Positions 31,771 through 50,640 of a stretch of 64,000 bases of DNA are shown in pieces. The translations under genes were made by a program, and so were the position numbers. Below the pieces are notes generated by a model. It saw only the letters and a list, made by a program, of their open reading frames with translations, made no database searches and was not told the origin of the DNA. The first letter of the stretch is position 1, and every line of letters starts with the position of its first letter. The DNA comes from Thermodesulfobacteriota bacterium (GTDB taxonomy: Bacteria; Desulfobacterota; BSN033; UBA1163): positions 25,120 through 89,119 of the forward strand of contig JBEKWN010000001.1 in assembly GCA_049513055.1 (NCBI GenBank), given 5' to 3'.

Positions 31771-31780
31771 TTTACTCTTT

Positions 31781-31804
31781 GCGCTATGCTCTATGCCCTC
31801 TGCG
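31781..31804. repeat. GC-rich 9-bp-periodic short repeat element (GCGCTATGC/TCTATGCCC units), copy 1
   Basis: gcgctatgctctatgccctctgcg in 37-bp gap between the two big cytochrome genes. Confidence 0.6.
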
Positions 31805-31807
31805 TTT

Positions 31808-33799
31808 TTATTTAGTTACAATGTGGCAGTCCTCACAGGATCTTCCCGCAAACGGAGGATGAACGACATCTTTGAAGAACTTCGGATCTTTTGAAGCATG
31901 GGGATCATGGCAATTCCTGCAATTCATGACCGAAGCTTCAATACCGATGTGGGCTTTGTCAAACGTGGCCTTCTTATAATCGTGGCATTCCCCGCAGAGC
32001 GGTTGAATCCGCTGATTCAGTAGGATCGGCTCTGCTGAAAAATGAGGCTTGTGGCACCTCTCGCAGTCTCTTGAGGCTGGTTGATGGGCTTTCTCTTTTT
32101 CCATCCTTACCTTCAGGTCTTTATGGCAAGTGAGACAGAGATCAGGGCTCTTTGCTAAAAGGAGCTTGTCTAATTTTGTCTTGTGAGGACTGTGGCACTT
32201 TGTGCATTCCCCATCGACAACTGGTAAGTGTTTGCTTTTGGCTGTGCCAATCTCTTTGCTCAAATCCGGATGGCAGGATAAACAGAGGGGCCCCTGTTTA
32301 TCGACAATCATCCCTTTCACATTGCTTGCATGAGCATTATGACAGGTGAGGCATTCCCCTTCTGCAAAAGGGTTATGGTTCGTGCCGTTCGTCTCCGCTT
32401 TCATGAGATCACCATGACACGAGGCACACATTTTTGCACCCACAAATCTCAGTATATTCTTCTCATTGGACCCGTGGGAACTATGGCAGGCATCACACTT
32501 AGCGTCCATCACTGGACGATGTGTGTAAGTTTTCAAAAACTTCGCTTCTGCATCCGTATGGCATGCATAACAAACCCGGTCCATCCTTTCCTTGATGATG
32601 TTTTTCATATTCGAGCCATGGGGATTATGGCATGAGTTGCATTCTCCCTCAGAAAAAGGAGGATGAGGCACTTTAGGTTTTACCTCTTTCGTTTTCGTAT
32701 GGCAGGAAAAGCAGAGCTCTTCATTCTTCATGTTCAAAAGATTCTTGTTCTTGGCTGCATGGGGTGGATGGCAGGAAAGGCATCCCTTCGCACTGGTCAC
32801 GGGAGTATGCTTAAATCCCACTTTCTCGCTCTGCTCTTTATGACAATCGAAACAGAGATCATTCATCTTTTTCAGTTCAAGCTTCAGATACTCGGAAGTG
32901 TGTGGGTTGTGGCATGTTAAACACTCCCCTTCTTTAAAGGGGCTATGTTCCACAGTGCCGCCAACTTTCAACTTTGAAGCATCGTGACAATTGTAGCAGA
33001 GCTTACTCCCTGTTTCAGTAGTGCCAAAAGGTTTTGGATCCGAAGCTGGCTTATGGCATGCATCACATTGAGCCAAGACAACAGGGTCATGAGCACTCGT
33101 TTTCAGGAGTTTTGCTTGCAATGAAGAATGTGGATTATGGCAGACGGAACAGATGGCTTGATTCACGGGATAATTGGCGTGAGCTTTTCTAAAGGATGGC
33201 TTGCTGATGTCATGACAGCCAAGACAGAGAGGAGTCTCTGCCTTCACCAAAAGGTCTTTTTGGTCAGAACTGTGGGAGAAATGGCACGTTGTACAACCTT
33301 TTGTCCCCACTTTATGGGCTACCTTCTTTTCATAACCCTCCTTTTTGTGACATTGATAGCAAGCTTCATTACCCTCTGCTTTCAACAAGTGACTGGATTG
33401 AGAAGCATGAGGATTATGGCACTGAATGCATTTTCCTCTTTTTAACGCCGTATGCACATTGGCTTTATTCATCCCAATCTTTTCTTTGCTATGGCATGGA
33501 TAGCAGATTTCATTTCCCTCTTTCTTAAGAAGCAGCTTGGGCACTAAGCCGTGCCGGAGATGGCAATCTTCGCATTTTCTCTCCTTCACTACTACGTGAA
33601 CATCTTTCATTCCCAGATACTTCTCAACAAACTTCTTGTGGCAGTCGAGGCATTCCCTACGGGCAAATTTCTTTCCCGAAGTTGGAGCACCTCCTAACGT
33701 CCTCGTCGCCGGTGCTTGGGCACAGGCATAGAGGATGGCTCCAATCATGATGAGAAAGATGACGAACAGAATGGCTTTGTGCTCTTTTAAGAAAGACAT
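31808..33799 (-). CDS. Multiheme c-type cytochrome, 26 CxxCH motifs, probable lipoprotein/secreted
   Basis: 26 CxxCH counted; regular doubled-CxxCH repeats; N-terminal signal ending AILYAC. Confidence 0.85.
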   Translation of the reverse strand: MSFLKEHKAILFVIFLIMIGAILYACAQAPATRTLGGAPTSGKKFARRECLDCHKKFVEKYLGMKDVHVVVKERKCEDCHLRHGLVPKLLLKKEGNEICYPCHSKEKIGMNKANVHTALKRGKCIQCHNPHASQSSHLLKAEGNEACYQCHKKEGYEKKVAHKVGTKGCTTCHFSHSSDQKDLLVKAETPLCLGCHDISKPSFRKAHANYPVNQAICSVCHNPHSSLQAKLLKTSAHDPVVLAQCDACHKPASDPKPFGTTETGSKLCYNCHDASKLKVGGTVEHSPFKEGECLTCHNPHTSEYLKLELKKMNDLCFDCHKEQSEKVGFKHTPVTSAKGCLSCHPPHAAKNKNLLNMKNEELCFSCHTKTKEVKPKVPHPPFSEGECNSCHNPHGSNMKNIIKERMDRVCYACHTDAEAKFLKTYTHRPVMDAKCDACHSSHGSNEKNILRFVGAKMCASCHGDLMKAETNGTNHNPFAEGECLTCHNAHASNVKGMIVDKQGPLCLSCHPDLSKEIGTAKSKHLPVVDGECTKCHSPHKTKLDKLLLAKSPDLCLTCHKDLKVRMEKEKAHQPASRDCERCHKPHFSAEPILLNQRIQPLCGECHDYKKATFDKAHIGIEASVMNCRNCHDPHASKDPKFFKDVVHPPFAGRSCEDCHIVTK

Positions 33800-33820
33800 A
33801 TATTCACCCTTTTAAACCAG

Positions 33821-33844
33821 GCATAGTGCAGAGCGCATAGGGGA
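33821..33844. repeat. Repeat element copy 2 (GCATAGTGC/GCAGAGCGC units)
   Basis: gcatagtgcagagcgcataggggg just upstream of the 26-heme cytochrome start. Confidence 0.6.
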
Positions 33845-33864
33845 TAGAGTAATTAGCTTTGCCA

Positions 33865-35514
33865 TTAATAGGTCAGGTAAACCTTCACATCCGAAACAGC
33901 TCTCAGTTTCTCTGCCCACTCCTCCACGGCTTTTTTAAGCTTATCATCAAAGACTATTCCGGCAATTTTCTTCTTTGCCTCCTCAAAGGGCTGAGGTTTC
34001 GCAGGAATCACATCCTGTATGGCCAGCGCATAGAAATAACCTTCAACACTTTCATATAACCTAAAATCACCAGGTCTTACCCCTGAAATAGATTTACGAA
34101 CTCCTTCAGGTAAATCTTTCGTAGTGAGAAATTTCCCTTCAAAGTTCAAGATGTCTTTACTATTACTCTTATCGATTTGGCCTTCTGCATTTTCCGTCAG
34201 CCACTGAAAGTCCGTACCTTTCCTGAGTTTCTCGAGCGCCGTTTCGGCAAACTCTCTTTTTGCAAAGACGAGGCTGTTGATCTTCATCATTTCCGGCATG
34301 GTATATTCTTTAATGTGATCATTGTAATACGTTTTAAGCTCCTCCTCCTTAAGCTCGATATCTGGGACGACCACTTTTTGAATAAATGCCCCGAAGATCA
34401 CAGAATTCTCATATTCTTTAACCCTGTTCTTATAGGTTTCCGTTTTGTCGATTCTAAGCCTAAGGGCTTCTTTCCTGAATACCCTTTTGTGCAGCATCTC
34501 GTTTAAGGCAGGAATTTTTCTTTCATTCAAATTTTTGCTTTCTATTGCCCTTTCGACCCCATGATAAAGCTGCTGCCTGAGATTATCGGTCAATTCTCCG
34601 ACCGTGATAGGCTTTTCTCCTTGTATCTCTGCGATGACCCGTTTATCCTCAAGAAGTTTTTGGAACCCTGGTTCCTTGGCCTCAAAGTCGATGTCGTCAA
34701 AAACCTTCTTATTCAATTTCACATACTTCTTGATCAGAGCATCATTATAATTCTCTAAAACTCCTTTCTTTTTCAAAACCAGAGCTTCGCGTTTTGCCAT
34801 TTCCCTGGCCTCTTCGCTTTCAGAATACCGAATGTCTTCAACTTTTAATACGGCAAAACCGGATCCCACGGGGATGATAGGGCTCACGGAGCCCGCCTCC
34901 ATCTTAGAAACTGTTTCAGCAACCTGCGGCAACAAGTCTTTTCGGCTCAAATAGTTACTTTCTTCGCCTCCCTTTGCGGCTCCATCCGAAACGACCTTTC
35001 GGGCCACTTCATCGAAACTCTTGCCTTCCTTGATCTCCTCCTCCATCTTCTTCGCGGAATCTTCCTTTTCGAATATGACGGATTTAATCTTCCATTCTTT
35101 TGCTAACTCCTTATAAATCTTTTCAATCTCTTTTTGGTCAGCCTTCACATCTTTCAACTGCCTTTCCGCCAATAACTCCCTGAGTGTGATGCGAGAGAAT
35201 ACATCTACCATATTTTTCACTTCGGGCAACTCATCAAGGCCGATCTTTCTGGCCTCTTGGATAATGAGTTTTGTATTGATCAAGCGCCTCAACAGTTCAG
35301 ACTCCGTACCTTTTTTCCCCTCGGCAGACTTGCTCCCCTTTAAAGAAGAGACCTCCTGGTTGAACTCCTGCAGAGTAATTGGTTCATCATTAACCATGGC
35401 AACTATTTTTTTGCCTTTCATTAATGGCAATTTCTGCTCCGATGCAAATACAGTTGCTTCGATAAGCAAGAAAATAACTAAGACTATTTTTGGTATCAAA
35501 GAAAGATATTTCAT
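33865..35514 (-). CDS. SurA/PpiD-like periplasmic chaperone with parvulin-type PPIase domain(s)
   Basis: Signal peptide MKYLSLIPKIVLVIFLLIEATVFA, SurA_N-like region, rotamase-like segment (PIIPVGSGFAVLKVED); start moved to internal Met so the intergenic repeat is not translated. Confidence 0.5.
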   Translation of the reverse strand: MKYLSLIPKIVLVIFLLIEATVFASEQKLPLMKGKKIVAMVNDEPITLQEFNQEVSSLKGSKSAEGKKGTESELLRRLINTKLIIQEARKIGLDELPEVKNMVDVFSRITLRELLAERQLKDVKADQKEIEKIYKELAKEWKIKSVIFEKEDSAKKMEEEIKEGKSFDEVARKVVSDGAAKGGEESNYLSRKDLLPQVAETVSKMEAGSVSPIIPVGSGFAVLKVEDIRYSESEEAREMAKREALVLKKKGVLENYNDALIKKYVKLNKKVFDDIDFEAKEPGFQKLLEDKRVIAEIQGEKPITVGELTDNLRQQLYHGVERAIESKNLNERKIPALNEMLHKRVFRKEALRLRIDKTETYKNRVKEYENSVIFGAFIQKVVVPDIELKEEELKTYYNDHIKEYTMPEMMKINSLVFAKREFAETALEKLRKGTDFQWLTENAEGQIDKSNSKDILNFEGKFLTTKDLPEGVRKSISGVRPGDFRLYESVEGYFYALAIQDVIPAKPQPFEEAKKKIAGIVFDDKLKKAVEEWAEKLRAVSDVKVYLTY

Positions 35515-35538
35515 CTCACTCCTTTTTCTATACACCAG

Positions 35539-35561
35539 GCGCTCTGCTCTATGCCCTATGC
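35539..35561. repeat. Repeat element copy 3
   Basis: gcgctctgctctatgccctatgc. Confidence 0.6.
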
Positions 35562-35567
35562 TTTCTA

Positions 35568-36659
35568 TCACTTGGCCATCATTTTCCCTATTGACTGAAC
35601 CATCTGGGAAGCCATGGCATGGGCGGTATTGACCCTCCCCCAGTCAAAAAAGAAGACGCCATCGTCCCCCGTATTATAACTGGTGGAACTCCAGACAACC
35701 TCTCTGCTCTTCCTTTCGATCACCTCTGCGGTAAAATCAACTTTCGGTTTTCCAAAACTGCCTTGGTAATCCTGATAATCGAGCACCTGTCCAGTCACGA
35801 CAAGATCGACATTCAACATTGCAAAAATGGCACCAGCGTCAGCCAGAGAAACCCCTTGATCCATGATAATTCTCAAATTGAGAAGCTGCTGTCTCACAAT
35901 ACCTGGTTCAATCACATCGAACTGTTCGAATTCTTTCAAATGCTTGACAAAATGGAGGGATACGATCTCCGCTCCATATTTCCTCTCGCTCCTGTTGAAA
36001 AAGGGGACAACCGCCACAGTGTATTTCCTCTTCCCTTCTATCACGGGTGAACGGAAAGATATCTTTGGTCGAAATTTCCTTTTCACAGACAGCCCTTTGT
36101 TCTCCTTCTGGCCGGAAAGACTTTCTCTTAGAGAGTCTAGCAAACGGTTCAGAGCCTTTTTTTGAAGCGTCTTAGGGTCTTCGATTAAACCTAAACCAAG
36201 AATACCCGGTGAATCATCGCCGGCCAATCCCACATCGTCGATCCACAGTATGGTAGGATTATCTCCGCTGGAAACGAGCCTCAAGGTCAATGCAATTTTG
36301 GGCGGATTCGTTTCATTATAGAGTTCGAGAGAAGTGATGAGCACGGCTTGACAGTCGATCTCATCCTTGAATTCTTTTGCCGTTATCTTATCGATACCTC
36401 CGGTGTAACGAATGCGATGCTTCGCCATAAATTTCTCGAGAGCATCCTCCTGAAGCACATCGATTCCCCTTGCCTTTAAACCATCCATAAGAGCTCCTCT
36501 TATCTCTTTAAGGGGCGACGCAGTTCCACTAAGGTTCTCCATTGGCAGGACGGCAATGAGGAATCGTTCTCCCATTCCGGGAAGATTTTCTTTCGTCGCC
36601 TCTTTCCCGGTTGCGCATCCGATAAGGAAAAGAAGCCCCGCAAAGAAAACAATTGTCAT
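35568..36659 (-). CDS. Lipoprotein with two LpoB/CsgG/TolB-N-like domains
   Basis: Lipobox LFLIGC; repeated modules FLIAVLPMENLSG... and YTVAVVPFFNRSE...VDLVVTGQV; start taken at MTIVFF to avoid overlap. Confidence 0.5.
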   Translation of the reverse strand: MTIVFFAGLLFLIGCATGKEATKENLPGMGERFLIAVLPMENLSGTASPLKEIRGALMDGLKARGIDVLQEDALEKFMAKHRIRYTGGIDKITAKEFKDEIDCQAVLITSLELYNETNPPKIALTLRLVSSGDNPTILWIDDVGLAGDDSPGILGLGLIEDPKTLQKKALNRLLDSLRESLSGQKENKGLSVKRKFRPKISFRSPVIEGKRKYTVAVVPFFNRSERKYGAEIVSLHFVKHLKEFEQFDVIEPGIVRQQLLNLRIIMDQGVSLADAGAIFAMLNVDLVVTGQVLDYQDYQGSFGKPKVDFTAEVIERKSREVVWSSTSYNTGDDGVFFFDWGRVNTAHAMASQMVQSIGKMMAK

Positions 36660-36660
36660 T

Positions 36661-37233
36661 TTATTTAAAAAGCTTGTTAACGAGATCATTCACAGCCTTG
36701 TCAGTAATGTCATTCATGGGCCTGCCACCCCCACCCAAGAGGCGATCCCAGATGCTGATCCCGCCTTTCGTCGTGGACGCAGTCCATACCACCTTCCCGG
36801 TCGTCCCCTCCATCATCTGGAGACTGACGGATATAATATTTGCAGAACTGGTACCTGACCTCACCTCACCATACTCTTTAACCACCCCCGTTACAACGGC
36901 CTGGGCTTTGATAAGTCCCGACAATTTTACGACCTCTTCTTGAGAAGGAGCAGCAGGATTCTGGATCTCTGCCCTGGCAATCCCTCTTGCAACCTCGCCA
37001 ATGGGGAGTACATATACAGCACCTGTGGATAATAGCTTGTTGATAAAGACATCTCTCACCCGTTCGCCAGCAATATTATCCCTTGTAAAGTTTAGGAAAG
37101 GCATGGCGGCAATGGTCTGTATCGCCCCGAAATCCATGTTTGGATCACGGTATATATTAGTTGTGGCACAAGCTGATACAAAGACGGGAACCAAAAACAA
37201 CAGAATTTTTAATAGACTGAAAGGTTTCTTCAT
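36661..37233 (-). CDS. Lipoprotein with one LpoB/CsgG/TolB-N-like domain
   Basis: Lipobox VFVSAC; IAAMPFLNFT...AQAVVTGVVKEYGE motif resembling previous gene. Confidence 0.5.
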   Translation of the reverse strand: MKKPFSLLKILLFLVPVFVSACATTNIYRDPNMDFGAIQTIAAMPFLNFTRDNIAGERVRDVFINKLLSTGAVYVLPIGEVARGIARAEIQNPAAPSQEEVVKLSGLIKAQAVVTGVVKEYGEVRSGTSSANIISVSLQMMEGTTGKVVWTASTTKGGISIWDRLLGGGGRPMNDITDKAVNDLVNKLFK

Positions 37234-37335
37234 AACCGACAGGACTCCCCCCCTTTTCCCAAAAAAAAATTAGATTGTGTGAAAATCGTCATTGAATTTC
37301 AATATCTAATACTTTTCCTATCTTGTCAATATCGC

Positions 37336-39507
37336 TCATAAAAATATCTTCAAATTAGCACTGAAACCGTTCGAATCCGATTTTTCCAATTTAGACGAAG
37401 TATGGATATACTGATAAGACAGGTCTAAGAAGGAACGGCTCGTTATATTCCATCTCACGCTTGGGGTTATCAGTCTGTTCTTCTGGTTATTTTCGGACAA
37501 TATGCTCTCATTATAGGAAAAATTAAATTGAAGCGTCCCTTCCGGAAAAGGTGACCAGTTGAGCCCGTAATTCTGGGTCGTCTGAATCTTCTGACCTTTT
37601 TGCGCTAATATTTCCCATGAGGTAAAGATATATAACGTTTCAAAAGGACGGTAGGCTACACTCAAGTCTCCCCTCCTTGCAGAAGTAGAAGTAGACGGCA
37701 GACCGCCACCAGATTGGTTTGTCGTTGTATCAGAGTAAATCAGAGTTATTGTCGTGGTTCTGTGGGGAACGATATTTGCGCCGAAATTGATGACGGTGTT
37801 GTTCTGCTTTTGACCTGTCTCTAAGGTCGAAAAATTGTACCCCCCACCGAGATTAATATCGATCCCTTTGTACAATGTTGCATTGTTTTGCAGAAAGATT
37901 GAATTATTCTTTGTTGATTTCCCACCAATCTCTTCTATGCGTCCACTATAGATGAGATTGTGCCGAAGGGTTGTCAACGGAGTGGCAACGATTGAGGCAT
38001 TGTATACGTAGGCCCACCTTTTCTTCCCCTCTTCAGTGCCATCTTCTCTTGCTACTCTCGCGCTCCCTGAAAAGATGGGATTAAACCTGTGATTCACTGA
38101 CAACCCGTTCGAAACAGTGTACGTGGTCTGACCAAGGTCTGTTTTGTCGAGGAAATAAGAGAACTCATAAAAAAGCGTGGGGATATCCAAAATCCTTGTT
38201 CTTGAATCGATGTTAAGAATATGGGTAAGTTTCGTGGTTCTGCCTTTCACCTGTTCCGCAGGCTTCTTTATAAATGCCTGCAACTCTGTGATGAAAATGT
38301 TTGGAAAACTTATTGCCCCGCTGACAAAATTTTGAAGGGGGAGGGTCACCACCTTTATATATCTTGTCGTTACTGGATTTATGAAGTTGATTTCAAAACG
38401 GTTTTGGAATTGTCCGGGAGAAACAGTAACGCCTAAAACTTGCGTCCAATTCAGGTTATCTGAACTTGTCCATACTTGGATATTTGAAAAAAAGAAGGTT
38501 AAAATGTTCGTTGCTGCAGAAAGGTCCCTATCAACCCACAGGAAGAGGCTGTTTACCTGTGTTGAAACCAAAAAATCGAGGCCTACCTGCCTTAGGCTCG
38601 TCGTATCTCCACCAAGAGGAGGAAGTCCAATATTGATGCCGGCGCTTGTAGTGGTATTCCCGTCAATGAGAGCTGGATTGGAATCAAGTGTTATGGGACT
38701 AGCCGTAATATTAATAATAGAAAGCCCTGCAAAAGGAGAAATTTGGGAGCTTACCGTTCCTCCTTTGCCTGTTGCAGTGGTATTGGTTTCTTCATAAGTG
38801 ATGTTGTAACTCCCGTTAAAAGAAACCCGGTTGTTAAAAAACATATCCGAGTAAGTAATTCTTCCGGTGTTCAGGTAATCTTTCGTGTCCACTCCGTTCA
38901 ATTTGTCTTTTGTATCGGTATACGTACCTTGATATCTGACATCGAGGTTCTTATACGTATATCTGGCGCTCAATAAACCATAGTCAGTGGTGGTATCCTG
39001 AATACTATGTTTTTCATCAAAGAGATTAGTTCGGGTAAGCCGCACATCGATGACCGGAAGTCCCTCGGGCCTCCAGCCTAAAATGACATTGTAGTCCTCA
39101 TTCACAGTAGTAACACCGGGGGAACCTGAAGTTTTCACTGTTTCCTGCCTTCTGTCATAACCGATTCCAGCCGTATAGAGGGGGGTGTTGAGCGTAAGGT
39201 TGATATAGGGACGCAGGTCGGTCGTATCCGATTTCGTTCTCATTCCATCAGTTTTGTCCCAGGAAATATTCTTTTCAACAACGACGCCAGCATCCAATCT
39301 CAAATTAGGAAAGATGTTTGTGTTTACCGTAAGGGTCACTCGAGGATTGAAATTATTCGTTACTGTTTTGGTAGTCACCCCCGTCGCATCTGTTGTCTTC
39401 GTAGATAAAAAATTATAGTTTAACTCTAAGAGGCCGCTTACGCCTTGAAGGAGTCCCTGTGCACTCGCCATGCCCGGTAACAACACCAAGACCAGCAAGA
39501 TAAGCAT
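37336..39507 (-). CDS. Predicted large outer-membrane beta-barrel protein (~720 aa)
   Basis: Signal peptide MLILLVLVLLPGMASA, Thr/Asn/Ser/Tyr-rich alternating amphipathic strands throughout, no TM helices; start moved from 39540 to Met at 39507. Confidence 0.45.
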   Translation of the reverse strand: MLILLVLVLLPGMASAQGLLQGVSGLLELNYNFLSTKTTDATGVTTKTVTNNFNPRVTLTVNTNIFPNLRLDAGVVVEKNISWDKTDGMRTKSDTTDLRPYINLTLNTPLYTAGIGYDRRQETVKTSGSPGVTTVNEDYNVILGWRPEGLPVIDVRLTRTNLFDEKHSIQDTTTDYGLLSARYTYKNLDVRYQGTYTDTKDKLNGVDTKDYLNTGRITYSDMFFNNRVSFNGSYNITYEETNTTATGKGGTVSSQISPFAGLSIINITASPITLDSNPALIDGNTTTSAGINIGLPPLGGDTTSLRQVGLDFLVSTQVNSLFLWVDRDLSAATNILTFFFSNIQVWTSSDNLNWTQVLGVTVSPGQFQNRFEINFINPVTTRYIKVVTLPLQNFVSGAISFPNIFITELQAFIKKPAEQVKGRTTKLTHILNIDSRTRILDIPTLFYEFSYFLDKTDLGQTTYTVSNGLSVNHRFNPIFSGSARVAREDGTEEGKKRWAYVYNASIVATPLTTLRHNLIYSGRIEEIGGKSTKNNSIFLQNNATLYKGIDINLGGGYNFSTLETGQKQNNTVINFGANIVPHRTTTITLIYSDTTTNQSGGGLPSTSTSARRGDLSVAYRPFETLYIFTSWEILAQKGQKIQTTQNYGLNWSPFPEGTLQFNFSYNESILSENNQKNRLITPSVRWNITSRSFLDLSYQYIHTSSKLEKSDSNGFSANLKIFL

Positions 39508-39508
39508 G

Positions 39509-39525
39509 GCGCATAGCGCAGAGCG
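39509..39525. repeat. Repeat element copy 4
   Basis: gcgcatagcgcagagcg immediately 5' of the chosen start of the beta-barrel gene. Confidence 0.55.
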
Positions 39526-39648
39526 TAGATCGTATTTCATCCAGAAAGCCCTTATAGCTATGTGACTTGGTAGAAAAAGTGGAATAGGATGCTTCGGATT
39601 GAACGCCTAACCAAATTTAACCGCTTTGAGTTATTCAAATTTTTCTCA

Positions 39649-39679
39649 CGCTATGCGCTAAGCGCTCTGCGCTATGCGT
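39649..39679. repeat. Repeat element copy 5
   Basis: cgctatgcgctaagcgctctgcgctatgcg abutting the stop of 39681-41099(-). Confidence 0.6.
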
Positions 39680-39680
39680 G

Positions 39681-41099
39681 TTACCGTTCTCCCATCATCG
39701 TCACCCAGTACGGGCTCTCCCCCACATCGACGATGAAAACCATCTTTTTACTGATAAGATTGGAACCCATTAAAGTTTTCATTCCAGGATTTATCATGAC
39801 AAGGTTATTCTCTTGGCCATCGATGGTCATATAGCTTATGCCTCCACCCGTATTGATAAAATCCACAGGGACGAATGAAAAAGGGTTATACGCCTCCACC
39901 ACCGTATCGTTTTTTCTCCCGAGATAGACGAGATCCGTGTTCGTTTCGACCTTTATAGACTCCATCCCCATCCTTACTTGAAACCTTCTTGCCACCGAGA
40001 GAGAAAGAGGATCTATAGCACTCACGTAAGAAGACCACTCATGAATGACATAAATTTTATCACCGTTTCTGTTAAACTGACCTCTCAAAGGACTTGGATC
40101 TGTCCCTATGGTAGCCAAAAGCATTTTGTTCGGAATATCGATAACAGAGACAGTGCTGGCCATGGTATTGAAGACATAAGCTCTCCTCCCTGTAGAATCT
40201 ATCAAGACCGAATTCGGCCCGTTTCCAACCTTGAGTCTGTTCACCTCTATTAGAGAACTGGTATCGATGAAACTCACGGTATTCGACCCTGGATTCACGG
40301 TAAGAAGAAGTCTGTTATCAGGGGTAAGGGCAAGCTCCTGAGGATGATCTCCGGTATTCAGGCGAATCCTGTCGATAACGTCTTCTGCAACCACGTCCAC
40401 AATAGCAATTGCGTCATCTCCTGAGAGTGCCACATAGCCTCTCCTCAATTTTTGGTCGAGGGCCATTCCCATGGGTTTTCTCCCGGTTGCGATGATGGCC
40501 ACGGCGAGCCCCGCCTGTTTGTCAAAAACTGTGATATTGCTGGAACCGGGGTTAGTAACGTATCCTGCAAGATTTGAAAGAGGCTTGCCAGGAATAGACA
40601 TGGAGAATACAGGACTGAAGCTGAAGCCACCTTTTATTGATTCAGGATATTTAAACCTCGCTGAAATAAGGTACGCCTTCTTTCTTGCCACATTAAATGA
40701 AAAGTCAATTTTTACCGGCTCTTCAGGAGATCGAAGGGTAGCTTCTCCCTCTTCCACTTTTAAGACAGCACTTTGAACCAGAAATGAAAGTCCACTATAT
40801 GAGCCTTGAGGCAGCCTGCCTGAAGCAAGAAGTCGCTGCCTTTTCATATCAGGGCCTTTCAACTGGTGCAGGGAAACATCAAGCGCGAATTCCCGACCAT
40901 CGCTGCTTACGGCAAAAACTTTCTCAAGGGTGAATCTGAGCCTGTCTGCCTCTTGAGGGAGAGGTTGGATATAAAGGTAGATTTCTCCTTCTTCTTCAAG
41001 GGGTGGCCTCACTGTTGAGATTGCTGCTTGGCAACCCACGATTACGAAAAGAACGCAGAGGGCATAGAGTATAGCGCATAGCGTTTTCTTAAAGGTCAT
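39681..41099 (-). CDS. YVTN-family beta-propeller lipoprotein
   Basis: Lipobox VIVGCQAA; YVTN-type repeats (GYVTNPGSSNITVFD, YVALSGDDAIAIVDV etc.). Confidence 0.6.
   Translation of the reverse strand: MTFKKTLCAILYALCVLFVIVGCQAAISTVRPPLEEEGEIYLYIQPLPQEADRLRFTLEKVFAVSSDGREFALDVSLHQLKGPDMKRQRLLASGRLPQGSYSGLSFLVQSAVLKVEEGEATLRSPEEPVKIDFSFNVARKKAYLISARFKYPESIKGGFSFSPVFSMSIPGKPLSNLAGYVTNPGSSNITVFDKQAGLAVAIIATGRKPMGMALDQKLRRGYVALSGDDAIAIVDVVAEDVIDRIRLNTGDHPQELALTPDNRLLLTVNPGSNTVSFIDTSSLIEVNRLKVGNGPNSVLIDSTGRRAYVFNTMASTVSVIDIPNKMLLATIGTDPSPLRGQFNRNGDKIYVIHEWSSYVSAIDPLSLSVARRFQVRMGMESIKVETNTDLVYLGRKNDTVVEAYNPFSFVPVDFINTGGGISYMTIDGQENNLVMINPGMKTLMGSNLISKKMVFIVDVGESPYWVTMMGER
41055..41083. repeat. Repeat element copy 6, overlapping codons of the signal peptide of 39681-41099
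   Basis: gcagagggcatagagtatagcgcatagcg. Confidence 0.55.
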
Positions 41100-41289
41100 T
41101 TTACAGCACCTCCATCTGTTGATAAACTCCCTTTGGTGGAACCAGCCAGATTTTGCGAGAAACCGAACCCTAAGACTATTAAATCTTATAACTCTTCCAA
41201 ATTCAACTACAAAAAAAGAGGGCTGACATTTTTGCCAGCCCTCTTGGCATTCTACGTCGAGACAGGATATCTCGACATTTCAGCACGCA

Positions 41290-42612
41290 TTAGTCTTTTA
41301 CGTGGCACTTGTTGCAGAGAGACCTCTGAAATGTCGCGTACATGCTCGGAGGCCTACCATACATTGCCGCCGGATACTCGGTTTTATTATATATGCTAGT
41401 TGCAGTAGCTGAGACAGGATAGGCACTACTTTCGGTAATAAATTCAAAGTCGTTGTCCCATCTGGTCATGTGGTCAAATCCGGTTGCATGCGCCCTGTGG
41501 CAGGAGAGGCACATCACGTTTTCAGATCCTCCATTTGGTCCCCCTATCACTGAGCCATCGCTCACTGCGTGCTTAGCGAGAGCTACCCGGTCCGAAGTAT
41601 GCTCCTCATAAGGCACCATTGAGGTGTATGAGTTAGCTGACGTACCGCTCAGGTCGCCCGACTTTACATACATGTTGTAGTTAGTGTATGCATCCACTAT
41701 ACTACCCTTCAACACGGCGGCGTTACTTGCCGGGTGAATCAAATTTGAACTTAAGCTATCGTTGTGAATTGCTGTATGGCAATTCGTACACCATTCTGAC
41801 ATGCCCTGACCATAAGCAACCCTGGTATCAGTGGAGGTCTCTTGCCTGTTGTACGAGCTGGGCGCCACAGCAAAAGGCGGATCGTAATTAAAGGCAGGAC
41901 CACCAGCATAAGACTTCGGCAAATAGCTTTTACCACCCAGCAGTCGGTATACACCCACGGTATCTGTTCCGGTTGGTATAGCGCCAGTAGAACCGGACCC
42001 TATAATAGGACCGGGAGTCGATCCTGCTCCGCCCCGGTATACGAGCGTACCACTGGCGTTTATTCTGGCGGATGGATGCGGATCGTGACAACTGATGCAG
42101 CTAAGGTTGTTTGCTGAGTAAGTACCGCCAGGGGCGGTGTGTAGCGTACTATCTGGTAATGCCAACCCCGAAAAATCTGTGGCGACAACGTTATGGCCGT
42201 GTCTCTCGCCGAGAACTGCTGCCGTATGCATATCACTCGTAGCGGTGTAAGTAAATGTCAGCCAAGCGAAGTCTCCACCCGGAGTATAGTTAGCAGGAAC
42301 CTGTGTCCCTTGTTTGGCGTCGCTGGTAAACACGTGGTAGCTGCTAGCACTGGCCGCCTTGCTTGCGTGGCAGAACAGACAGGTGGAACTCTGGTCAGTT
42401 CCTATGAGAAGGGACTGATTACCCGTGTATTGAGCAGCCTTCCCACTTAACCCTTTCTGTGCAGCCTTTACACCTCCAACGGAGTTGTGCATGGTATGGC
42501 ATCCATCGCATGTTGCAACGCCGCCTTCATGGAAGGCATATGCCATTCCGCTTAAACCAATAGTTACCAGGGCTGCAGCCATGATAACCAAACTTAACTT
42601 CACTGCTTTCAT
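41290..42612 (-). CDS. OmcS-family hexaheme c-type cytochrome (homolog of the Geobacter nanowire-forming cytochrome OmcS)
   Basis: Signal peptide then FHEGGVATCDGCHTMHNS; 6 CxxCH; matches OmcS across length including RVAYGQGMSEWCTNCHT, CLSCHRAHATGFD and C-terminal QRSLCNKCHVKD. Confidence 0.85.
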   Translation of the reverse strand: MKAVKLSLVIMAAALVTIGLSGMAYAFHEGGVATCDGCHTMHNSVGGVKAAQKGLSGKAAQYTGNQSLLIGTDQSSTCLFCHASKAASASSYHVFTSDAKQGTQVPANYTPGGDFAWLTFTYTATSDMHTAAVLGERHGHNVVATDFSGLALPDSTLHTAPGGTYSANNLSCISCHDPHPSARINASGTLVYRGGAGSTPGPIIGSGSTGAIPTGTDTVGVYRLLGGKSYLPKSYAGGPAFNYDPPFAVAPSSYNRQETSTDTRVAYGQGMSEWCTNCHTAIHNDSLSSNLIHPASNAAVLKGSIVDAYTNYNMYVKSGDLSGTSANSYTSMVPYEEHTSDRVALAKHAVSDGSVIGGPNGGSENVMCLSCHRAHATGFDHMTRWDNDFEFITESSAYPVSATATSIYNKTEYPAAMYGRPPSMYATFQRSLCNKCHVKD

Positions 42613-42774
42613 TTCATCCTCCTAATTAGTTTTTTGATTTTTTGTTTTTACTTTCTTTACGTTACCTTTTACTGCTTACTTATAACTATTCTTGATTGCC
42701 CTTCAACCACCTCCTCCACCATTTTCTATTTTCCCCCGCATAACAACCCCCCTATTAATCCAACTACGCAAAAC

Positions 42775-42812
42775 GCATAGGGCATAGCGCAGAGCGCAGA
42801 GCGCAGAGCGCC
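42775..42812. repeat. Repeat element copy 7 (includes GCAGAGCGC x3)
   Basis: gcatagggcatagcgcagagcgcagagcgcagagcgcc between OmcS-like gene and NHL gene. Confidence 0.6.
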
Positions 42813-42834
42813 TAGCCCTTTTTATAAAAAGGAA

Positions 42835-43806
42835 TCAGTCGTACTTCACCTGGAAAACGCTGACTCCTCTCCTTGCACTCTGGCTCACGTAAATCCTTCC
42901 CATATTATCTACGGTTAATTCCATGGGTGCGATCAAATTACCGGGCCCATATCCGCGGTAGCCAAATTCTTTTAGGAACTTGAAATCCTTATCAAAGACC
43001 ATGACCACGCTTCTTAATGTGTCAGTCAGATACAAATATCCTTTATCATCAGATGCAATGCCTCCAACGATATTAAATTTCCCCGGAGCGCTTCCCCTTT
43101 GGCCAAAAGATACTATTTTGCGATCAGGGGAGAGTTTGAAAGCTTGAAAAATCGTAGGAATAGTAAAAAAGATATTTCCTTCCTTATCCACATTGAAGCC
43201 TACGATGCCCGTATCGGCCCTTTTCTTTTCATCAAAATGGAGAAGAGCAGCCAGGTCGTAGCCATCCAGATAAGCACCGCTCATATCGGTCACTGCAACC
43301 CTCATCTGACCTTTGTCGATCAGATAGAGGCGACCTTCTCTATAAATGATGCTGCTTGGCGAGATCCTGGAGAAATCGGAAGGAAGATTTTGTGGTTCGA
43401 ATCTCGATATAACCTCTCCCCTGTAATTGCAGCGGATAATCGAATAACTTTTTCCTTTTACATCATGTTTGTAAGAGAGCAGAAGAATGTTTCCATCCTT
43501 ATCAACGGCGAGGTGAGCTATATTAATATTTCCAAGGTCGCTGTCCTCGCCGAAATTGTAAATTTCCATTCCATTTTCATTAAATATCCTCACAGACCGG
43601 TCCGACCCGTCGCACACATACACCTCGTTCGTTTCCTTATCAAGAGCAAGTTCTACCCAGCTGTAAGGTATTGCACCCGTAAAGCTTGAGAGGTTGTAAA
43701 GATATGATGCCTTTACGGGTTGTCCCTCTACAATTCCGGAAGAAAGAACCAAAAAAGCAATTGCGATTAGGATCAATAACTGTTTTGCCGGGTATCTCAT
43801 ATTCAT
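42835..43806 (-). CDS. NHL-repeat beta-propeller protein, secreted
   Basis: Signal peptide; NHL-like blades (YVCDGSDRSVRIFN, YLYLTDTLRSVVMVFD, GRIYVSQSARRGVSVFQV). Confidence 0.65.
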   Translation of the reverse strand: MNMRYPAKQLLILIAIAFLVLSSGIVEGQPVKASYLYNLSSFTGAIPYSWVELALDKETNEVYVCDGSDRSVRIFNENGMEIYNFGEDSDLGNINIAHLAVDKDGNILLLSYKHDVKGKSYSIIRCNYRGEVISRFEPQNLPSDFSRISPSSIIYREGRLYLIDKGQMRVAVTDMSGAYLDGYDLAALLHFDEKKRADTGIVGFNVDKEGNIFFTIPTIFQAFKLSPDRKIVSFGQRGSAPGKFNIVGGIASDDKGYLYLTDTLRSVVMVFDKDFKFLKEFGYRGYGPGNLIAPMELTVDNMGRIYVSQSARRGVSVFQVKYD

Positions 43807-44031
43807 AACTCTTTGCTATTTCTATAGAGCAAGCCCCATGCCAAAACTCTTCGAATCGTTGCCGCAAAAACCTTTTAAAAATAGAAGAGAAAAGCTTTTA
43901 AATTCAATATATTAGATGAGGCAAAAAAAGGGGTACGAAGCTATTGATTTGTAGTCCATGTGAAAGTAGGTGCTTATTAGCGTAATATCCCGCACCTCTG
44001 TGGATTCTCCCACAATGATATTGTTAAAACC

Positions 44032-44060
44032 GCAAAGTGCAGAGCCCATGGGGCATAGCG
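44032..44060. repeat. Repeat element copy 8
   Basis: gcaaagtgcagagcccatggggcatagcg. Confidence 0.5.
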
Positions 44061-44210
44061 AAATTCTTAAAGCTAAGAGCGTGGAAGGAATTAGAATTCA
44101 ATTAAGAATGTGGAGTTTTAGAGAAAAAACGAGATATGAATCTTAGCGAACGAGGGGATTGCGAGATATAGCTTTTGAGATTTTAGATTCTAAAGTTTTA
44201 AAGTTTGAAC

Positions 44211-44238
44211 TCTATGCTCTATGCCCTATGCGCTATGA
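44211..44238. repeat. Repeat element copy 9
   Basis: tctatgctctatgccctatgcgctatga just 3' of the response-regulator gene. Confidence 0.6.
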
Positions 44239-44249
44239 GGTTCTTGGGA

Positions 44250-45626
44250 TTACGATTCAAGAATAGCGAACTTCTGCATTCGGTACCGGAGGGCGTCCCG
44301 ACTGATGTCTAAAAGTTTGGCGGCTTTGGTTTGATTGCCGTTGGTTATCTTAAGTGCCTGCCTCACCAGGGCTTCTTCTACTTTTTCCATCGAAATTCCT
44401 TCTGGTGGAATTCGAATGCCTTCGATCACTCCCCCCCGTTTCGATGCTTGGCCAAGAATCTCTATGGGCAGATGCTCCATGAGGAGAGTATCTTCTTCAA
44501 TAAGGATCATTGCCCTTTCAATCACATTTTTCAATTCTCGTACATTACCTGGCCAATTATAATTCCTGAGGAAGTCCTCTACTCCTTTTGAAATTTTTTT
44601 GACATTCTTATGGAATTCCTCGTTATATTTTTGCATGAAGTATTTCGTCAGGGGAAGAATATCACTCGGCCTCTCACGAAGGGGAGGAATTCTAATTGAG
44701 GCGACATTAATCCTGTAAAAAAGGTCTTCCCGGAATTTGCCTTCCTCCTTTAATTTAAGCAGATCCTTGTTGGTTGCCGTTACAATTCTTACATCCACTT
44801 GAATATCTTTTAACCCACCCATTCTACGAAAAGTCTTTTGCTCTACCAATCTCAAGATTTTTCCTTGTAGGTTCAGGTTCATGTCCCCGATCTCATCCAA
44901 AAACAACGTCCCTCTATCTGCTATTTCAAGAAGTCCCTTTTTCACTTCTTTGGCATCAGTGAAGGCTCCCTTCTCGTGACCGCAAAGTTCATTCTCCAGC
45001 ATCTGTTCCGGGAAGTTGGCACAATTGACTGTAATAAAGGGCATATTCTGCCTTTTACTCCGCTCATGGGTGAGGTGAGCGATCACTTCTTTTCCTGTAC
45101 CACTTTCCCCTTGAATCAGCACTGTTGCCGTTTCACTTTGGGCAATCTTTTCAGAAATCTGAAGAACTCTTCCCATCTCCTGACTCACTGCGATAATGTT
45201 ATCAAAACCATACCAATTTCTCTTTTCCCTTCTGAGATGTCTGACCTCCCTCTTGAGTTGCGAGGCTTCCAATGCCTTCTGGATGGATAAGTGAACCTTA
45301 CTAAAGTCAAAAGGTTTGGTGATATAGTCAAAGGCTCCTAATCTCATTGCTTTAACCACCTTCTCAACCTCGTCAAACGCGGTGATCATGATAGGAATAA
45401 TACCCTCATCTATCTTAAGTGCTTTCTCAAGGACTTCATAGCCATCCATCCCGGGCAGTTTGATATCGAGAAGAGCTAAATCCGGTGCTCCCTCCTTCAC
45501 TTTTTCCAGTGCCTCCTCACCCGTTTCCGCAAGGAGAACTTCGTAACCCTCCTTCTCCAAATTTTGTTGGAGGGTCCACCGGATCAAATATTCATCATCA
45601 ACCACTAAGATTCTGGCTTCAGACAT
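44250..45626 (-). CDS. Sigma-54-dependent Fis-family response regulator (NtrC-like)
   Basis: Receiver domain, AAA+ sigma54-interaction domain (GESGTGKE, GAFTDA), C-terminal HTH. Confidence 0.9.
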   Translation of the reverse strand: MSEARILVVDDEYLIRWTLQQNLEKEGYEVLLAETGEEALEKVKEGAPDLALLDIKLPGMDGYEVLEKALKIDEGIIPIMITAFDEVEKVVKAMRLGAFDYITKPFDFSKVHLSIQKALEASQLKREVRHLRREKRNWYGFDNIIAVSQEMGRVLQISEKIAQSETATVLIQGESGTGKEVIAHLTHERSKRQNMPFITVNCANFPEQMLENELCGHEKGAFTDAKEVKKGLLEIADRGTLFLDEIGDMNLNLQGKILRLVEQKTFRRMGGLKDIQVDVRIVTATNKDLLKLKEEGKFREDLFYRINVASIRIPPLRERPSDILPLTKYFMQKYNEEFHKNVKKISKGVEDFLRNYNWPGNVRELKNVIERAMILIEEDTLLMEHLPIEILGQASKRGGVIEGIRIPPEGISMEKVEEALVRQALKITNGNQTKAAKLLDISRDALRYRMQKFAILES

Positions 45627-45689
45627 TGTTTACACCAAAATCCGTGACCGTGTTGCGTGTCGCGTGCCCGGACACGGAAACGATTTTTA

Positions 45690-47198
45690 TTAATTGATGG
45701 CCGGGAGGGTAATGATAAATTTCGTTCCCACATTGACCTGGCTTTCCACCTCTATCTTTCCGCCTTGTTGTTCCACGATATTTTTGGTGATGGATAAGCC
45801 CAAACCGGTCCCATCCGAACGGGTTGAGAAGAAGGGATTGAAAATCTTAGGTAAGTTTTCTCCTGTGATCCCAACACCTGTATCCTCAAAGACGATCTGG
45901 ACTTCTTGAACCTCTTTCCCATCGTCTTTCCTCTGAGGAAGTGCAACCGTCGAGACGGTGAACGTTCCACCTTTGGGCATTGCCTTCTGGGCATTGAGGA
46001 TGATATTTAAAAAGGCCTGCTCCATAGAACTTGGATCGATCATCGTCTTAGGAAGGGATGAAACAAATCTCTTTTCAATTTTAAAATCCTCCGACCTTCC
46101 GCGTTGTGTCATAAAGAAAGATAGAACTTTATCGACCAGTTGATTGATATCTATCGGCAAATAATTTTTGGGAACAGGCTTAGCAAAGTTAAGTAGATCC
46201 TTTACAAGTCGTTCCAGCTTGTAAATCTGTTTTTGAATCTCATCGGTTACTTGTGTTCGAGGATCCTCTTTGGGGAATCCCTCCGCCATGATTTGAATAG
46301 CTCCTTGAATGCCTGCCAAAGGATTCCTAATCTCATGAGCGATTCCAGAAGCCAGCTCGCCAATAGAGGCCATTCGATCAGCCCTCTGAATCAGTTCCTG
46401 ATGATATTGCTCCGCCTCTTGCTTCGCCAAATTGAGCTTCTCGATCATGATGTTGAGATTCTCAGCCAGACGTCCCATTTCATCTCTGCTCTTAACATTC
46501 ACTCTAACACTTAAATCGCCCTCTTCCGCTTTTTTCATCGTCTCGGTCAACTTCTTGATCGGGACATTGATGAATCTCAAAAAGAGGAAACCCAGTACAA
46601 AGGATAAGAATGCAATGGTAATGATGGCAAGGATAATCGAGTGGATCTGGACTTTGTAAATCATGTCGTGCATCTCTCTCATGGATTCGGCCACAACCAG
46701 TACCCCGATCACCTGGTTCTTTTTATCATGGCATTGAAAACATTCCGGTCTGTTTTGGATCGGATTGACGTAATAATAAACGGCCTCATGGACTATTTTC
46801 CCGGCATTATTCTGCAAAACCTCCTCTTTTTCAAAATATCTATTTTTCAAATAGAAGTCTACATTTTCAACTTTCTTATTTAACTCTCCTTCATAGGTGG
46901 TTGCCATGATGGTCCCATCCGGTCGGAAGACATGGATCTTCCAGATTCCTTTGTAAGTTGCGAAGTTCTGCAGGACCCGATGGATTTCAAAATGTCTTCC
47001 TTTTTCCATCGCCCGGATGACATTTTTTTCGATAAATTCCGAAACAATTTTTGCTTTCTCCTGGGTCAGTCTTTCGATACTGCCTTCGTGAAGCGCTGTA
47101 TTCCAATAGACATTAAAGGAAATGGCAAAGATCAAGATGAGACTGGTGACCAAGACGACCTTAAAGAATAAAGAGGTTTTTCTTAGGATGGACCACAT
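45690..47198 (-). CDS. Sensor histidine kinase with periplasmic sensor domain carrying a CxxCH heme-c motif
   Basis: Two TM helices flanking ~150-aa periplasmic domain containing ECFQCHD; HisKA (ELASGIAHEIRNPL) and HATPase_c motifs. Confidence 0.85.
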   Translation of the reverse strand: MWSILRKTSLFFKVVLVTSLILIFAISFNVYWNTALHEGSIERLTQEKAKIVSEFIEKNVIRAMEKGRHFEIHRVLQNFATYKGIWKIHVFRPDGTIMATTYEGELNKKVENVDFYLKNRYFEKEEVLQNNAGKIVHEAVYYYVNPIQNRPECFQCHDKKNQVIGVLVVAESMREMHDMIYKVQIHSIILAIITIAFLSFVLGFLFLRFINVPIKKLTETMKKAEEGDLSVRVNVKSRDEMGRLAENLNIMIEKLNLAKQEAEQYHQELIQRADRMASIGELASGIAHEIRNPLAGIQGAIQIMAEGFPKEDPRTQVTDEIQKQIYKLERLVKDLLNFAKPVPKNYLPIDINQLVDKVLSFFMTQRGRSEDFKIEKRFVSSLPKTMIDPSSMEQAFLNIILNAQKAMPKGGTFTVSTVALPQRKDDGKEVQEVQIVFEDTGVGITGENLPKIFNPFFSTRSDGTGLGLSITKNIVEQQGGKIEVESQVNVGTKFIITLPAIN

Positions 47199-47383: not shown

Positions 47384-47677
47384 CTATGAAGAGTCTTTCG
47401 AGGAAATAATTGGACGAAGATCAGTTTTAGAAGCAGAATAAAGTTTAAAAACCTTACAAGTTTTACAATCCTTTTTGATGCCAAGCAGGATCTCACATTT
47501 CGTATAAGCAATCTCCCAACAGGGCCTGTCCCGATAGAGGTAGGCAGGGCAATCAACATAAACATATTTGGAACAATCTAAGATAATCCAGCATGGTTTT
47601 TTCCCTTCCCAAAAATCTGACAATCTTATTTCCCCCGATATGCACCCCCATTTTAGTTCAATCTCTAAGAAAAGCAA
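47384..47677 (-). CDS. Small Cys-rich hypothetical protein (8 Cys in 97 aa) upstream of the sensor kinase
   Basis: ORF only; Cys spacing CWIILDC...CPAY...CWEIAYTKC...CKTCK; no family recognised. Confidence 0.3.
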   Translation of the reverse strand: MLFLEIELKWGCISGEIRLSDFWEGKKPCWIILDCSKYVYVDCPAYLYRDRPCWEIAYTKCEILLGIKKDCKTCKVFKLYSASKTDLRPIISSKDSS

Positions 47678-50610: not shown

Positions 50611-50640
50611 CGCTATGCTCTATGCACTTTGCGCTCTGCG
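50611..50640. repeat. Repeat element copy 10
   Basis: cgctatgctctatgcactttgcgctctgcg downstream of TPR gene. Confidence 0.6.

Follow-up and report, generated by a model that had tools for sequence, protein, structure and literature searches.

A candidate OmcS-type nanowire locus of an uncultured Thermodesulfobacteriota lineage and the divergent centre of its subunit gene

The omcS homologue and its companion cluster

The 64,000-nt stretch of DNA analysed here (hereafter, the window) covers positions 25,120 to 89,119 of contig JBEKWN010000001.1 (assembly GCA_049513055.1, Thermodesulfobacteriota bacterium) and carries an open reading frame (ORF) for a 440-aa homologue of OmcS, the hexaheme c-type cytochrome of Geobacter sulfurreducens (GSU2504) for which filament structures are available (PDB 6EF8, 6NEF). 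The gene starts with an ATG preceded by AGGAGG and lies within an 18-kb cluster (29437-47198), all of it on the minus strand, which also includes a two-component system, two NHL-type proteins and counterparts of the omcS companion (osc) genes of Geobacter (Table 1).

Table 1. Features of the omcS/osc locus and heptamer arrays of the window
Feature	Coordinates	Strand	Basis
Second NHL-repeat protein, closing the cluster	29437-30423	-	Pfam NHL, E=6e-15
16-heme c-type cytochrome, OscJ position	30430-31770	-	16 CxxCH; Pfam
26-heme c-type cytochrome, OscI position, MtrA-like modules	31808-33799	-	26 CxxCH; Pfam
OscH-like SurA-type peptidyl-prolyl isomerase chaperone, 568 aa	33865-35571	-	Pfam Rotamase_2, SurA_N
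OscG-like lipoprotein, 373 aa	35568-36689	-	49% identical to Geotalea 372-aa protein
OscF-like lipoprotein, 190 aa, LpoB/GNA1162-like fold	36661-37233	-	Pfam
OscE-like secreted protein, 734 aa, presumed outer-membrane channel component	37336-39540	-	Homology
OscD-like YVTN/YncE beta-propeller lipoprotein, 472 aa	39681-41099	-	Pfam YNCE, NCBIfam beta_rpt_yvtn
Strong intrinsic terminator-like hairpin, 13-bp GC-rich stem and T run	41216-41245	-	Terminator scan
OmcS-family hexaheme c-type cytochrome, candidate nanowire subunit, 440 aa	41290-42612	-	Homology, fold, heme motifs
Hypervariable centre of the omcS homologue (hemes 2-4 motifs and the loops between)	41520-42500	-	DNA identity to L084
Secreted NHL-like beta-propeller protein	42835-43806	-	Weak NHL/SBBP/DUF5128 Pfam matches
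Candidate sigma-54 (-24/-12) promoter, TGGCATGGGGCTTGCT	43828-43843	-	One mismatch to TGGCAC-N5-TTGCW
Sigma-54 response regulator (REC, AAA+ sigma-54 interaction, Fis-type helix-turn-helix)	44250-45626	-	Pfam Sigma54_activat, E=3e-63
Sensor histidine kinase (HAMP, HisKA, HATPase)	45690-47198	-	Pfam
Heptamer (CTATGCG)n array or complement	31777-31804		Tandem Repeats Finder, pattern count
Heptamer array	33827-33847		As above
Heptamer array	35549-35562		As above
Heptamer array	39503-39523		As above
Heptamer array	39651-39678		As above
Heptamer array	41054-41081		As above
Heptamer array (longest)	42767-42815	-	As above
Heptamer array	44212-44239		As above
Heptamer array	50613-50640		As above

When all PDB sequences were searched with phmmer, OmcS (6EF8/6NEF) was the sole match of the window protein at E≤1 (E=1.1e-106), with residues 27-440 aligned to residues 1-407 of the OmcS chain; by BLASTP, the two proteins are ~48-50% identical. 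Residues 1-26 form a hydrophobic N-terminal signal peptide with predicted cleavage after AYA26, which places the predicted mature N-terminus, FHEGG, at residue 1 of the solved chain. Both proteins share the mature N-terminus FH.GGVA.C.GCHTMHNS and the C-terminus QR.LCNKCH.KD, and the terminal strings quoted in a first-pass annotation of the locus, which had aligned the ORF product with OmcS from the mature N-terminus to the C-terminus, are equal to those of the HMMER alignment. The six CxxCH motifs of the product, which the same annotation had placed at sites equivalent to those of OmcS, are indeed in register: all 12 Cys and 6 His residues of the OmcS CxxCH sites match window protein columns in a family alignment and are 99.6-100% conserved among its 229 sequences. 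This alignment combined mature OmcS (407 aa, reconstructed from the phmmer alignment to the PDB chain), the window protein, 119 database homologues and 108 sequences translated from species-representative genomes, and was redone with 245 sequences; the window protein was represented by database entry P0001, which differs from it at A167E, a position that is neither Cys nor His. An AlphaFold2 model of the protein, compared with the PDB by Foldseek, likewise had 6ef8_A as its sole match (template-modelling score 0.78/0.84, E=9e-36, root-mean-square deviation 3.9 over 419 columns). We regard membership of the window protein in the OmcS family as practically certain.

Apart from the CxxCH sites, OmcS contains 11 further His residues, five of which are invariant in the 229-sequence alignment (positions 2, 110, 147, 257 and 335) and all present in the window protein; His16 is conserved in 90% of the sequences and the remaining ones in 2-72%. 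In the solved OmcS filament, all 12 axial heme ligands are His, 11 of them provided by the same subunit and one, on heme 5, by the neighbour (PMC6584659). The 11 near-invariant His residues and the 90%-conserved twelfth agree with this 11+1 scheme, and it is on the family-wide invariance, together with the published 11+1 statement, that the assignment of the distal His residues as ligands is based. All 12 axial positions are found in the window protein, which thereby resembles G. sulfurreducens OmcS in having 11 own-subunit His plus His16. The equivalent of His16 is residue 42; the first-pass annotation had singled out the His that reaches the neighbouring subunit, and residue 42 occupies the column that we take to be that of this ligand.

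The first-pass annotation had also placed an NHL-repeat protein and a sigma-54 two-component system (44250-47198) next to the gene, an arrangement that the Pfam domains bear out, and had described a similar neighbourhood for Geobacter. For comparison, we used a genome of the sulfurreducens group with an OmcS (annotated by NCBI as 'c-type cytochrome OmcS') that shares 94% identity with the solved protein. There, a kinase, a sigma-54 regulator and a 315-aa NHL-like protein do lie directly upstream of OmcS, which is followed by OmcT, a 1017-aa spermine-synthase-domain protein, a third OmcS-like protein, a propeller, a 718-aa protein and an LpoB-like lipoprotein, where the compared flank ends. The window counterparts within this flank are 41-55% identical to the Geobacter proteins. 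The sigma-54 two-component system upstream is thus common to the window and the sulfurreducens group, whereas the neighbouring regulator of Geotalea daltonii is of the OmpR type.

Downstream of the subunit gene, the window shares with both Geobacter and Geotalea an assembly cluster that the first-pass annotation did not mention. Nine consecutive window proteins have full-length homologues, in the same order, in the cluster of Geotalea daltonii FRC-32 (41-60% identity), and the osc clusters of Geobacter and G. daltonii agree with that of the window in gene order and sizes. The NHL-like protein is 49% identical over its full length to the G. daltonii neighbour and 41% to the 315-aa Geobacter one; the OscD-like propeller has 46% full-length identity to its positional equivalents in Geobacter (492 aa) and Geotalea (474 aa); and the OscE-like protein is 41-42% identical, full length, to those of 739 aa in Geotalea and 718 aa in Geobacter. 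The OscE-like protein of the window has no relative in the PDB by sequence search and would be the barrel or channel component. The OscF-like lipoprotein is 60% identical to its Geotalea counterpart and 55% to the Geobacter LpoB-like lipoprotein (partial), the C-terminal domain of the OscG-like lipoprotein is weakly similar to PelC-type ring lipoproteins (PDB 5t0z, E=0.0055; PelC 9h80_C, E=0.07), and the OscH-like chaperone is 46% identical to the same-position 580-aa Geotalea protein. The 26-heme cytochrome is 59% identical to a 657-aa Geotalea protein and matches PDB 6r2q_A (E=4e-20), which we take to be the decaheme MtrA, chain A of Shewanella MtrCAB; the PDB table that was used labels this chain 'Cystathionine beta-synthase', a label that looks erroneous. 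Homologues of the 16-heme cytochrome occupy the same position in many loci (44-81% identity), and the second NHL-repeat protein is kept at the cluster end, again in many loci. The names OscD- to OscJ-like were given by gene order, those from OscG to OscJ being transferred by position rather than by comparison with the Geobacter proteins themselves.

The window cluster contains a single OmcS-family gene, sited between the NHL-like gene and the OscD-like gene and separated from the latter by 190 nt. OmcT, OscC and the OscB-like spermine-synthase-domain protein, all present in G. sulfurreducens, are absent between omcS and the OscD-like gene of the window; they are lacking in G. daltonii too and are therefore probably not essential to this type of cluster. 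Relatives from the same lineage as the window share its cluster architecture. One of them, the European Nucleotide Archive (ENA) contig L084, carries two genes that the window lacks, namely, a 992-aa spermine-synthase-domain gene on the opposite strand between the regulator and NHL-like genes (5165-8143) and a 23S_rRNA_IVP-family gene inserted between the OscD- and OscE-like genes (13038-13397). The former has the same Pfam domain and a similar size as the 1017-aa Geobacter gene, which we presume to be OscB.

In Geobacter, omcS, omcT and oscC are members of the osc operon, GSU2501 corresponding to oscC, GSU2495 to oscI and GSU2494 to oscJ; the proposed roles are folding for OscH, secretion for OscE, OscF and OscG, and filament morphology for OscD (Shen et al. 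2025, as summarised in PMC13194489). Given that only one Pfam model, the generic Paired_CXXCH_1, passes its cut-off on the window protein and other generic multiheme motifs fall below theirs, the protein could in principle be a periplasmic electron-transfer or catalytic multiheme protein unconnected with extracellular wires. Against this reading stand the full-length match, which is specific to OmcS, the agreement in fold and the osc synteny, together with the bis-His coordination of all hemes, which would leave no open site for catalysis; we consider such a role very improbable.

Overall, the ORF probably encodes an OmcS-type filament subunit, and the 18-kb cluster would then represent a complete osc system; polymerisation of the protein in vivo appears likely to about the same degree. 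Alternatively, the window protein might be a non-polymerising paralogue of OmcS, that is, a monomeric or loosely bound hexaheme cytochrome of the outer surface that passes electrons to minerals or partners. A non-wire role is the usual assumption for OmcT, OscC and OmcJ, and the family has thousands of members, with many paralogues per genome and up to six copies in one locus. In the search against OmcS and its paralogues that the first-pass annotation had proposed, OmcS came out ahead, but identity to it (49.6%) is barely above that to OmcT (46.2%) and to the third paralogue, OscC (45.9%). Furthermore, OmcT and OscC of Geobacter share the N-terminal His16 motif and all six hemes, so that the ligand test cannot tell filament formers from close paralogues, and we know of no demonstration that either protein forms filaments.

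Several other points weigh against the filament assignment. Polymerisation, secretion and conductivity are properties that we infer from sequence. That His16 is the inter-subunit ligand is our assumption, which leans on its reported role in the structure (Wang et al. 2019) and on the conservation pattern. The association of His16 with osc genes, given below, ignores shared ancestry. The AlphaFold2 model, built from 67 sequences, is a heme-free monomer in which residues 21-72 are poor (predicted local distance difference test, pLDDT, <50, compared with 76.9 for the whole; predicted template-modelling score 0.79). Finally, the OscD-like protein has none of the CxxCH that Geobacter OscD carries, and no PpcA-type triheme cytochrome is encoded within the window.

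Even so, we consider a non-polymerising paralogue unlikely. The window protein is the sole family member in its cluster and occupies the omcS position between the NHL-like and OscD-like genes; the assembly genes are all intact and conserved; His16 is present, whereas it is lost in clearly stand-alone paralogues; and the ends of the protein, with hemes 1, 5 and 6, are the parts best conserved among the alleles described below. When homologues are restricted to those whose downstream sequence extends for 6 kb or more, osc genes follow 48 of the 72 that keep His16 and none of the 18 that lack it (Fisher p=9e-8, uncorrected for common descent).

Expression signals and the proposed assembly route

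The kinase encoded upstream (residue numbers are those of the protein) has one CFQCH motif for a c-type heme, at residue 153, in its periplasmic loop, between hydrophobic segments at approximately residues 7-32 and 179-214. This motif is retained in the kinases of lineage relatives, and one N-terminal C(F)xCH is also found in omcS-adjacent kinases of Nitrospirota, Deferrimicrobiaceae, Syntrophales, Desulfobacteraceae and other metagenome-assembled genomes (MAGs), whereas the Geobacter kinase has a dCache sensor without a heme motif. It is reasonable to suppose, from these motifs, that the kinase is a heme-based redox or ligand sensor steering wire production. Just upstream of the kinase lies a 97-aa Cys-rich ORF (47384-47677, minus strand; eight Cys in ~50 residues) with no domain assignment; its DNA is 74% conserved in locus L085, where gene calling puts an 80-aa gene at this position.

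The AAA+/helix-turn-helix part of the sigma-54 regulator is 41% identical to that of the regulator upstream of Geobacter omcS. A candidate promoter for such an activator, TGGCATGGGGCTTGCT, is located 21 nt ahead of the NHL-like gene. The same element precedes this gene in six lineage relatives (L084, L085, L087, L088, L095 and L103). It is also found in L033, L007 and L111, the taxa including a Nitrospirota MAG, with a degenerate form in Geobacter, and is absent in G. daltonii, which has the OmpR-type regulator. Because sigma-54 consensus matches across the window occur at chance level (25 versus 25.6 expected), support for this promoter comes from its position and conservation. Similarly, scans of the window for sigma-70 promoters and terminators revealed no overall enrichment, and the hairpin with the 13-bp stem after omcS, which starts 45 nt past the stop codon, alone stands out. 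Its placement is consistent with a subunit transcript that would outnumber the transcripts of the accessory genes.

Taken together, these parts could operate as follows. The periplasmic heme-c sensor kinase and the sigma-54 activator would turn on the -24/-12 promoter before the NHL-like gene and omcS, and the terminator after omcS would let the subunit transcript exceed those of the accessory genes. The subunit, with the motifs for Sec export, cleavage after AYA26 and six covalently bound bis-His hemes in place, would be matured by established cytochrome c chemistry. By homology to the Geobacter system, in the roles proposed for it as summarised in PMC13194489, the OscH-like isomerase would fold the subunit, the OscE-, OscF- and OscG-like proteins would take it across the outer membrane, and the OscD-like propeller would modulate filament form. 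Head-to-tail polymerisation, with His16 (residue 42) ligating heme 5 of the neighbour, might then yield a continuous heme chain for extracellular electron transfer, into which the 26- and 16-heme cytochromes may feed electrons from the periplasm.

Divergence within the subunit gene

Contig L084 shares 91-99% identity with the window in its cluster proteins, except for the OmcS homologue, at just 67%. Aligned as DNA, the two are 94-100% identical over the propeller gene, the terminator and all of the NHL-like gene but a short part. The omcS ends, with the motifs for hemes 1, 5 and 6 (~110 nt at the start of the gene and ~230 nt at its close), retain 90-94% identity, whereas the centre of the gene (~42500-41520) drops to 48-85%. 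Nei-Gojobori estimates of synonymous (dS) and nonsynonymous (dN) divergence follow the same partition: dS is 0.73 and dN 0.27 in the centre, compared with 0.21-0.26 and ~0.065 at the ends and with 0.007-0.36 and 0.005-0.044 in five neighbouring genes. The dN/dS ratio is ~0.37 in the centre. Four neighbours have lower ratios, of ~0.07-0.17, and the remaining one, the gene for the 190-aa lipoprotein, is too similar for a meaningful value. The omcS centre is thus older than its surroundings, pointing to recombination or gene conversion.

A scan of metagenome contigs with the propeller protein yielded 25 more loci. In all 55 pairs that can be formed from 11 loci, OmcS identity is lower than propeller identity, and in the 29 pairs with propeller identity of at least 85%, OmcS identity is 39-83% (median 59%). 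Some alleles within the lineage are 44-46% identical to that of the window and are thus further from it than is Geobacter OmcS (48-50%). Nevertheless, every lineage allele keeps the six CxxCH motifs and all 12 His residues, including His16, which lies just inside the variable part. Conservation across 13 lineage alleles is highest in the signal peptide with heme 1, in the CxxCH motifs and in the C-terminal regions of hemes 5 and 6. In our own reading of the structure, neighbouring OmcS subunits of the filament meet through heme 1 and His16 on one side and hemes 5 and 6 on the other, and the conserved ends may accordingly correspond to the polymerisation interface.

As part of the overall explanation that we favour, the centre of the subunit gene has probably been rapidly exchanged or diversified in this lineage, with the ends and the heme ligands kept. 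The divergence could instead reflect ancient tandem paralogues (OmcS-, OmcT- and OscC-like) that were differentially retained, or chimeric assembly at conserved gene ends. All compared contigs are metagenome assemblies, as a chimera would presuppose, and the subunit gene indeed varies in copy number among the relatives: L085 contains a truncated second OmcS-like ORF (11408-11971; 158 aa, 40% identical to the N-terminal 116 residues), and two tandem full copies are present in L090 (1-585 and 619-2103) and L033 (9992-12827). The existence of in-lineage alleles more distant than Geobacter OmcS is likewise what retention of old paralogues would produce. However, the ends of the window and L084 genes match the synonymous divergence of the flanks, unlike the centre, and a mosaic gene of this kind requires recombination or gene conversion, beyond simple differential loss. 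As for chimeras, the pattern recurs in each of the 55 pairs, across 11 contigs from different samples, and two independent assemblies of the window population agree with each other, omcS included. The second of these, Joint Genome Institute (JGI) contig Ga0187882_1000150, is 99.96-99.99% identical to the window, from which it differs by one 60-bp indel at 50062/50063 and one OmcS residue (A167E); by coordinate arithmetic, the window runs ~8.5 kb past the end of the JGI contig, beyond 55435. The indel, the residue change and the extension indicate that the window comes from another assembly of the same population. Differential retention or assembly artefact therefore seems to us a rather doubtful account.

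More tentatively, and with the balance of our judgement slightly against it, the wire subunit might behave like a pilin or flagellin, its central ~1 kb being recombined and diversified into many co-existing wire 'serotypes' with the heme chain kept. Type IV pilins and flagellins have conserved assembly ends and an exposed centre that varies through recombination and selection; the analogy concerns the pattern of variation only, these proteins being unrelated to the OmcS homologue in fold and chemistry. If this view is correct, cytochrome wires would be under strong frequency-dependent or niche-specific selection, possibly through recognition by phages or predators or through tuning of surface chemistry or redox properties to minerals or partners, and the conserved ends would mark the minimal polymerisation interface. 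A literature search by titles and abstracts retrieved no report of OmcS hypervariability, which is weak evidence that the pattern is unreported.

In practical terms, the variation amounts to a natural mutagenesis series of at least 12 alleles, 39-83% identical and presumably served by near-identical assembly machinery. If confirmed, this series would tell which parts of OmcS can change without loss of assembly and would make it worth asking what favours diversity in a filament that conducts electrons.

The NHL-like gene also varies. It contains a second, smaller dip (43053-43173, minus strand), with 76-82% DNA identity to L084 compared with 91-100% around it. Across the lineage loci, the NHL-like protein (53-94%) is more variable than the propeller and reaches its greatest divergence at the loci with the most divergent OmcS alleles, a hint of linkage or co-variation with the subunit.

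Distribution of OmcS loci, host lineage and other features of the window

OmcS homologues form at least 4,053 database clusters at E≤1e-5. Among species representatives, they are found in Geobacteraceae, Anaeromyxobacter, Nitrospirota, Acidobacteriota, Schekmanbacteria, Desulfobulbaceae, Desulfobacteraceae, Syntrophales and others, and osc genes are present at many of these loci. Such homologues have already been described as widespread (PMC10954620) and proposed as wires in syntrophic sulfate reducers (PMC10553843). These two reports cover OmcS-like cytochromes of Desulfobacterota, Anaeromyxobacter and others as proposed wire formers; there, the gene is often found in oetABI cassettes, or full osc synteny is undescribed. 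Shen et al. 2025 (Cell Chem Biol 32:239, as cited in PMC13194489) call the assembly machinery 'widespread and ancient' in their title. With regard to structures, a 2025 preprint (10.1101/2025.10.22.684050) presents its OmcE, by its own account, as the first structure of a bacterial cytochrome nanowire from a species other than G. sulfurreducens, and the PDB copy searched holds no OmcS-family filament structure from outside that species.

The suggestion of the first-pass annotation that the locus encodes a candidate cytochrome nanowire in a different lineage therefore holds with respect to the OmcS family and the non-Geobacter host but not with respect to novelty: a non-Geobacter OmcS gene with an osc locus is not new, and the window adds another uncultured lineage to a long list. 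As an OmcS locus alone, it matters little and is an ordinary discovery. Its cluster is, however, a compact reference, in which one subunit gene is accompanied by intact OscD- to OscJ-like genes, a heme-motif kinase and a candidate sigma-54 promoter, and such a minimal complete cluster could be moved as one unit into an expression host. The parts that merit the attention of specialists are the hypervariability of the subunit and the sensor kinase with its heme motif.

The host belongs to the phylum of Geobacter but lies outside the Geobacteraceae, being an uncultured Thermodesulfobacteriota lineage; the JGI sample series suggests that it may live in wetlands or sediments. The GC content is 0.43-0.48 over most of the window, in agreement with the ~45% from which the first-pass annotation had argued against Geobacter, and an Rfam scan of the whole window gave no rRNA or tRNA match. 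No OmcS relative exceeds 56% identity in any species-representative genome. Judging by the accessory genes, the nearest species representative is the unclassified Thermodesulfobacteriota MAG JAPVTA01 (regulator 94%, kinase 78% and multiheme cytochromes 78-81% identical). The housekeeping protease TldD (50897-52354) has hundreds of metagenomic relatives at 87-99% identity, and its few named relatives (89-93%) come from unclassified Thermodesulfobacteriota or 'Deltaproteobacteria' MAGs. Geobacter as the host was rejected on the identity of OmcS relatives (at most 56%), the 41-60% identity of the accessory proteins to those of Geobacteraceae and the unclassified status of the TldD relatives.

The junctions of the cluster are marked by heptamer arrays, the pattern being matched 25 times in the window versus 0.15 expected. 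Eight of the nine arrays are located at gene junctions of the omcS/osc cluster and one in the other ~45 kb; two are embedded in the sequences that code for the signal peptides of the OscD- and OscE-like proteins. Arrays are found at equivalent junctions in lineage relatives, and 1.29 Mb of omcS loci from other taxa contain essentially none. Array orientation alternates, such that several genes are bracketed by inverted arrays and omcS by direct ones. We considered these arrays as recombination breakpoints around omcS and rejected them, since the breakpoints fall inside the gene.

Elsewhere in the window, an AcrB/OEP efflux gene pair (positions 1-4000) has a GC content of 55-56%, compared with 43-48% for the rest, and may have been horizontally acquired. 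On the plus strand, positions 13023-22228 encode a xanthine-dehydrogenase-family molybdoenzyme with 2Fe-2S domains, a split pair resembling phosphoenolpyruvate-utilising enzymes and pyruvate phosphate dikinase (PEP-utilising/PPDK-like) and a PaaK-like CoA ligase, and are followed by a branched-chain-type ABC transporter on the minus strand; this set of genes resembles those for anaerobic aromatic-acid catabolism.

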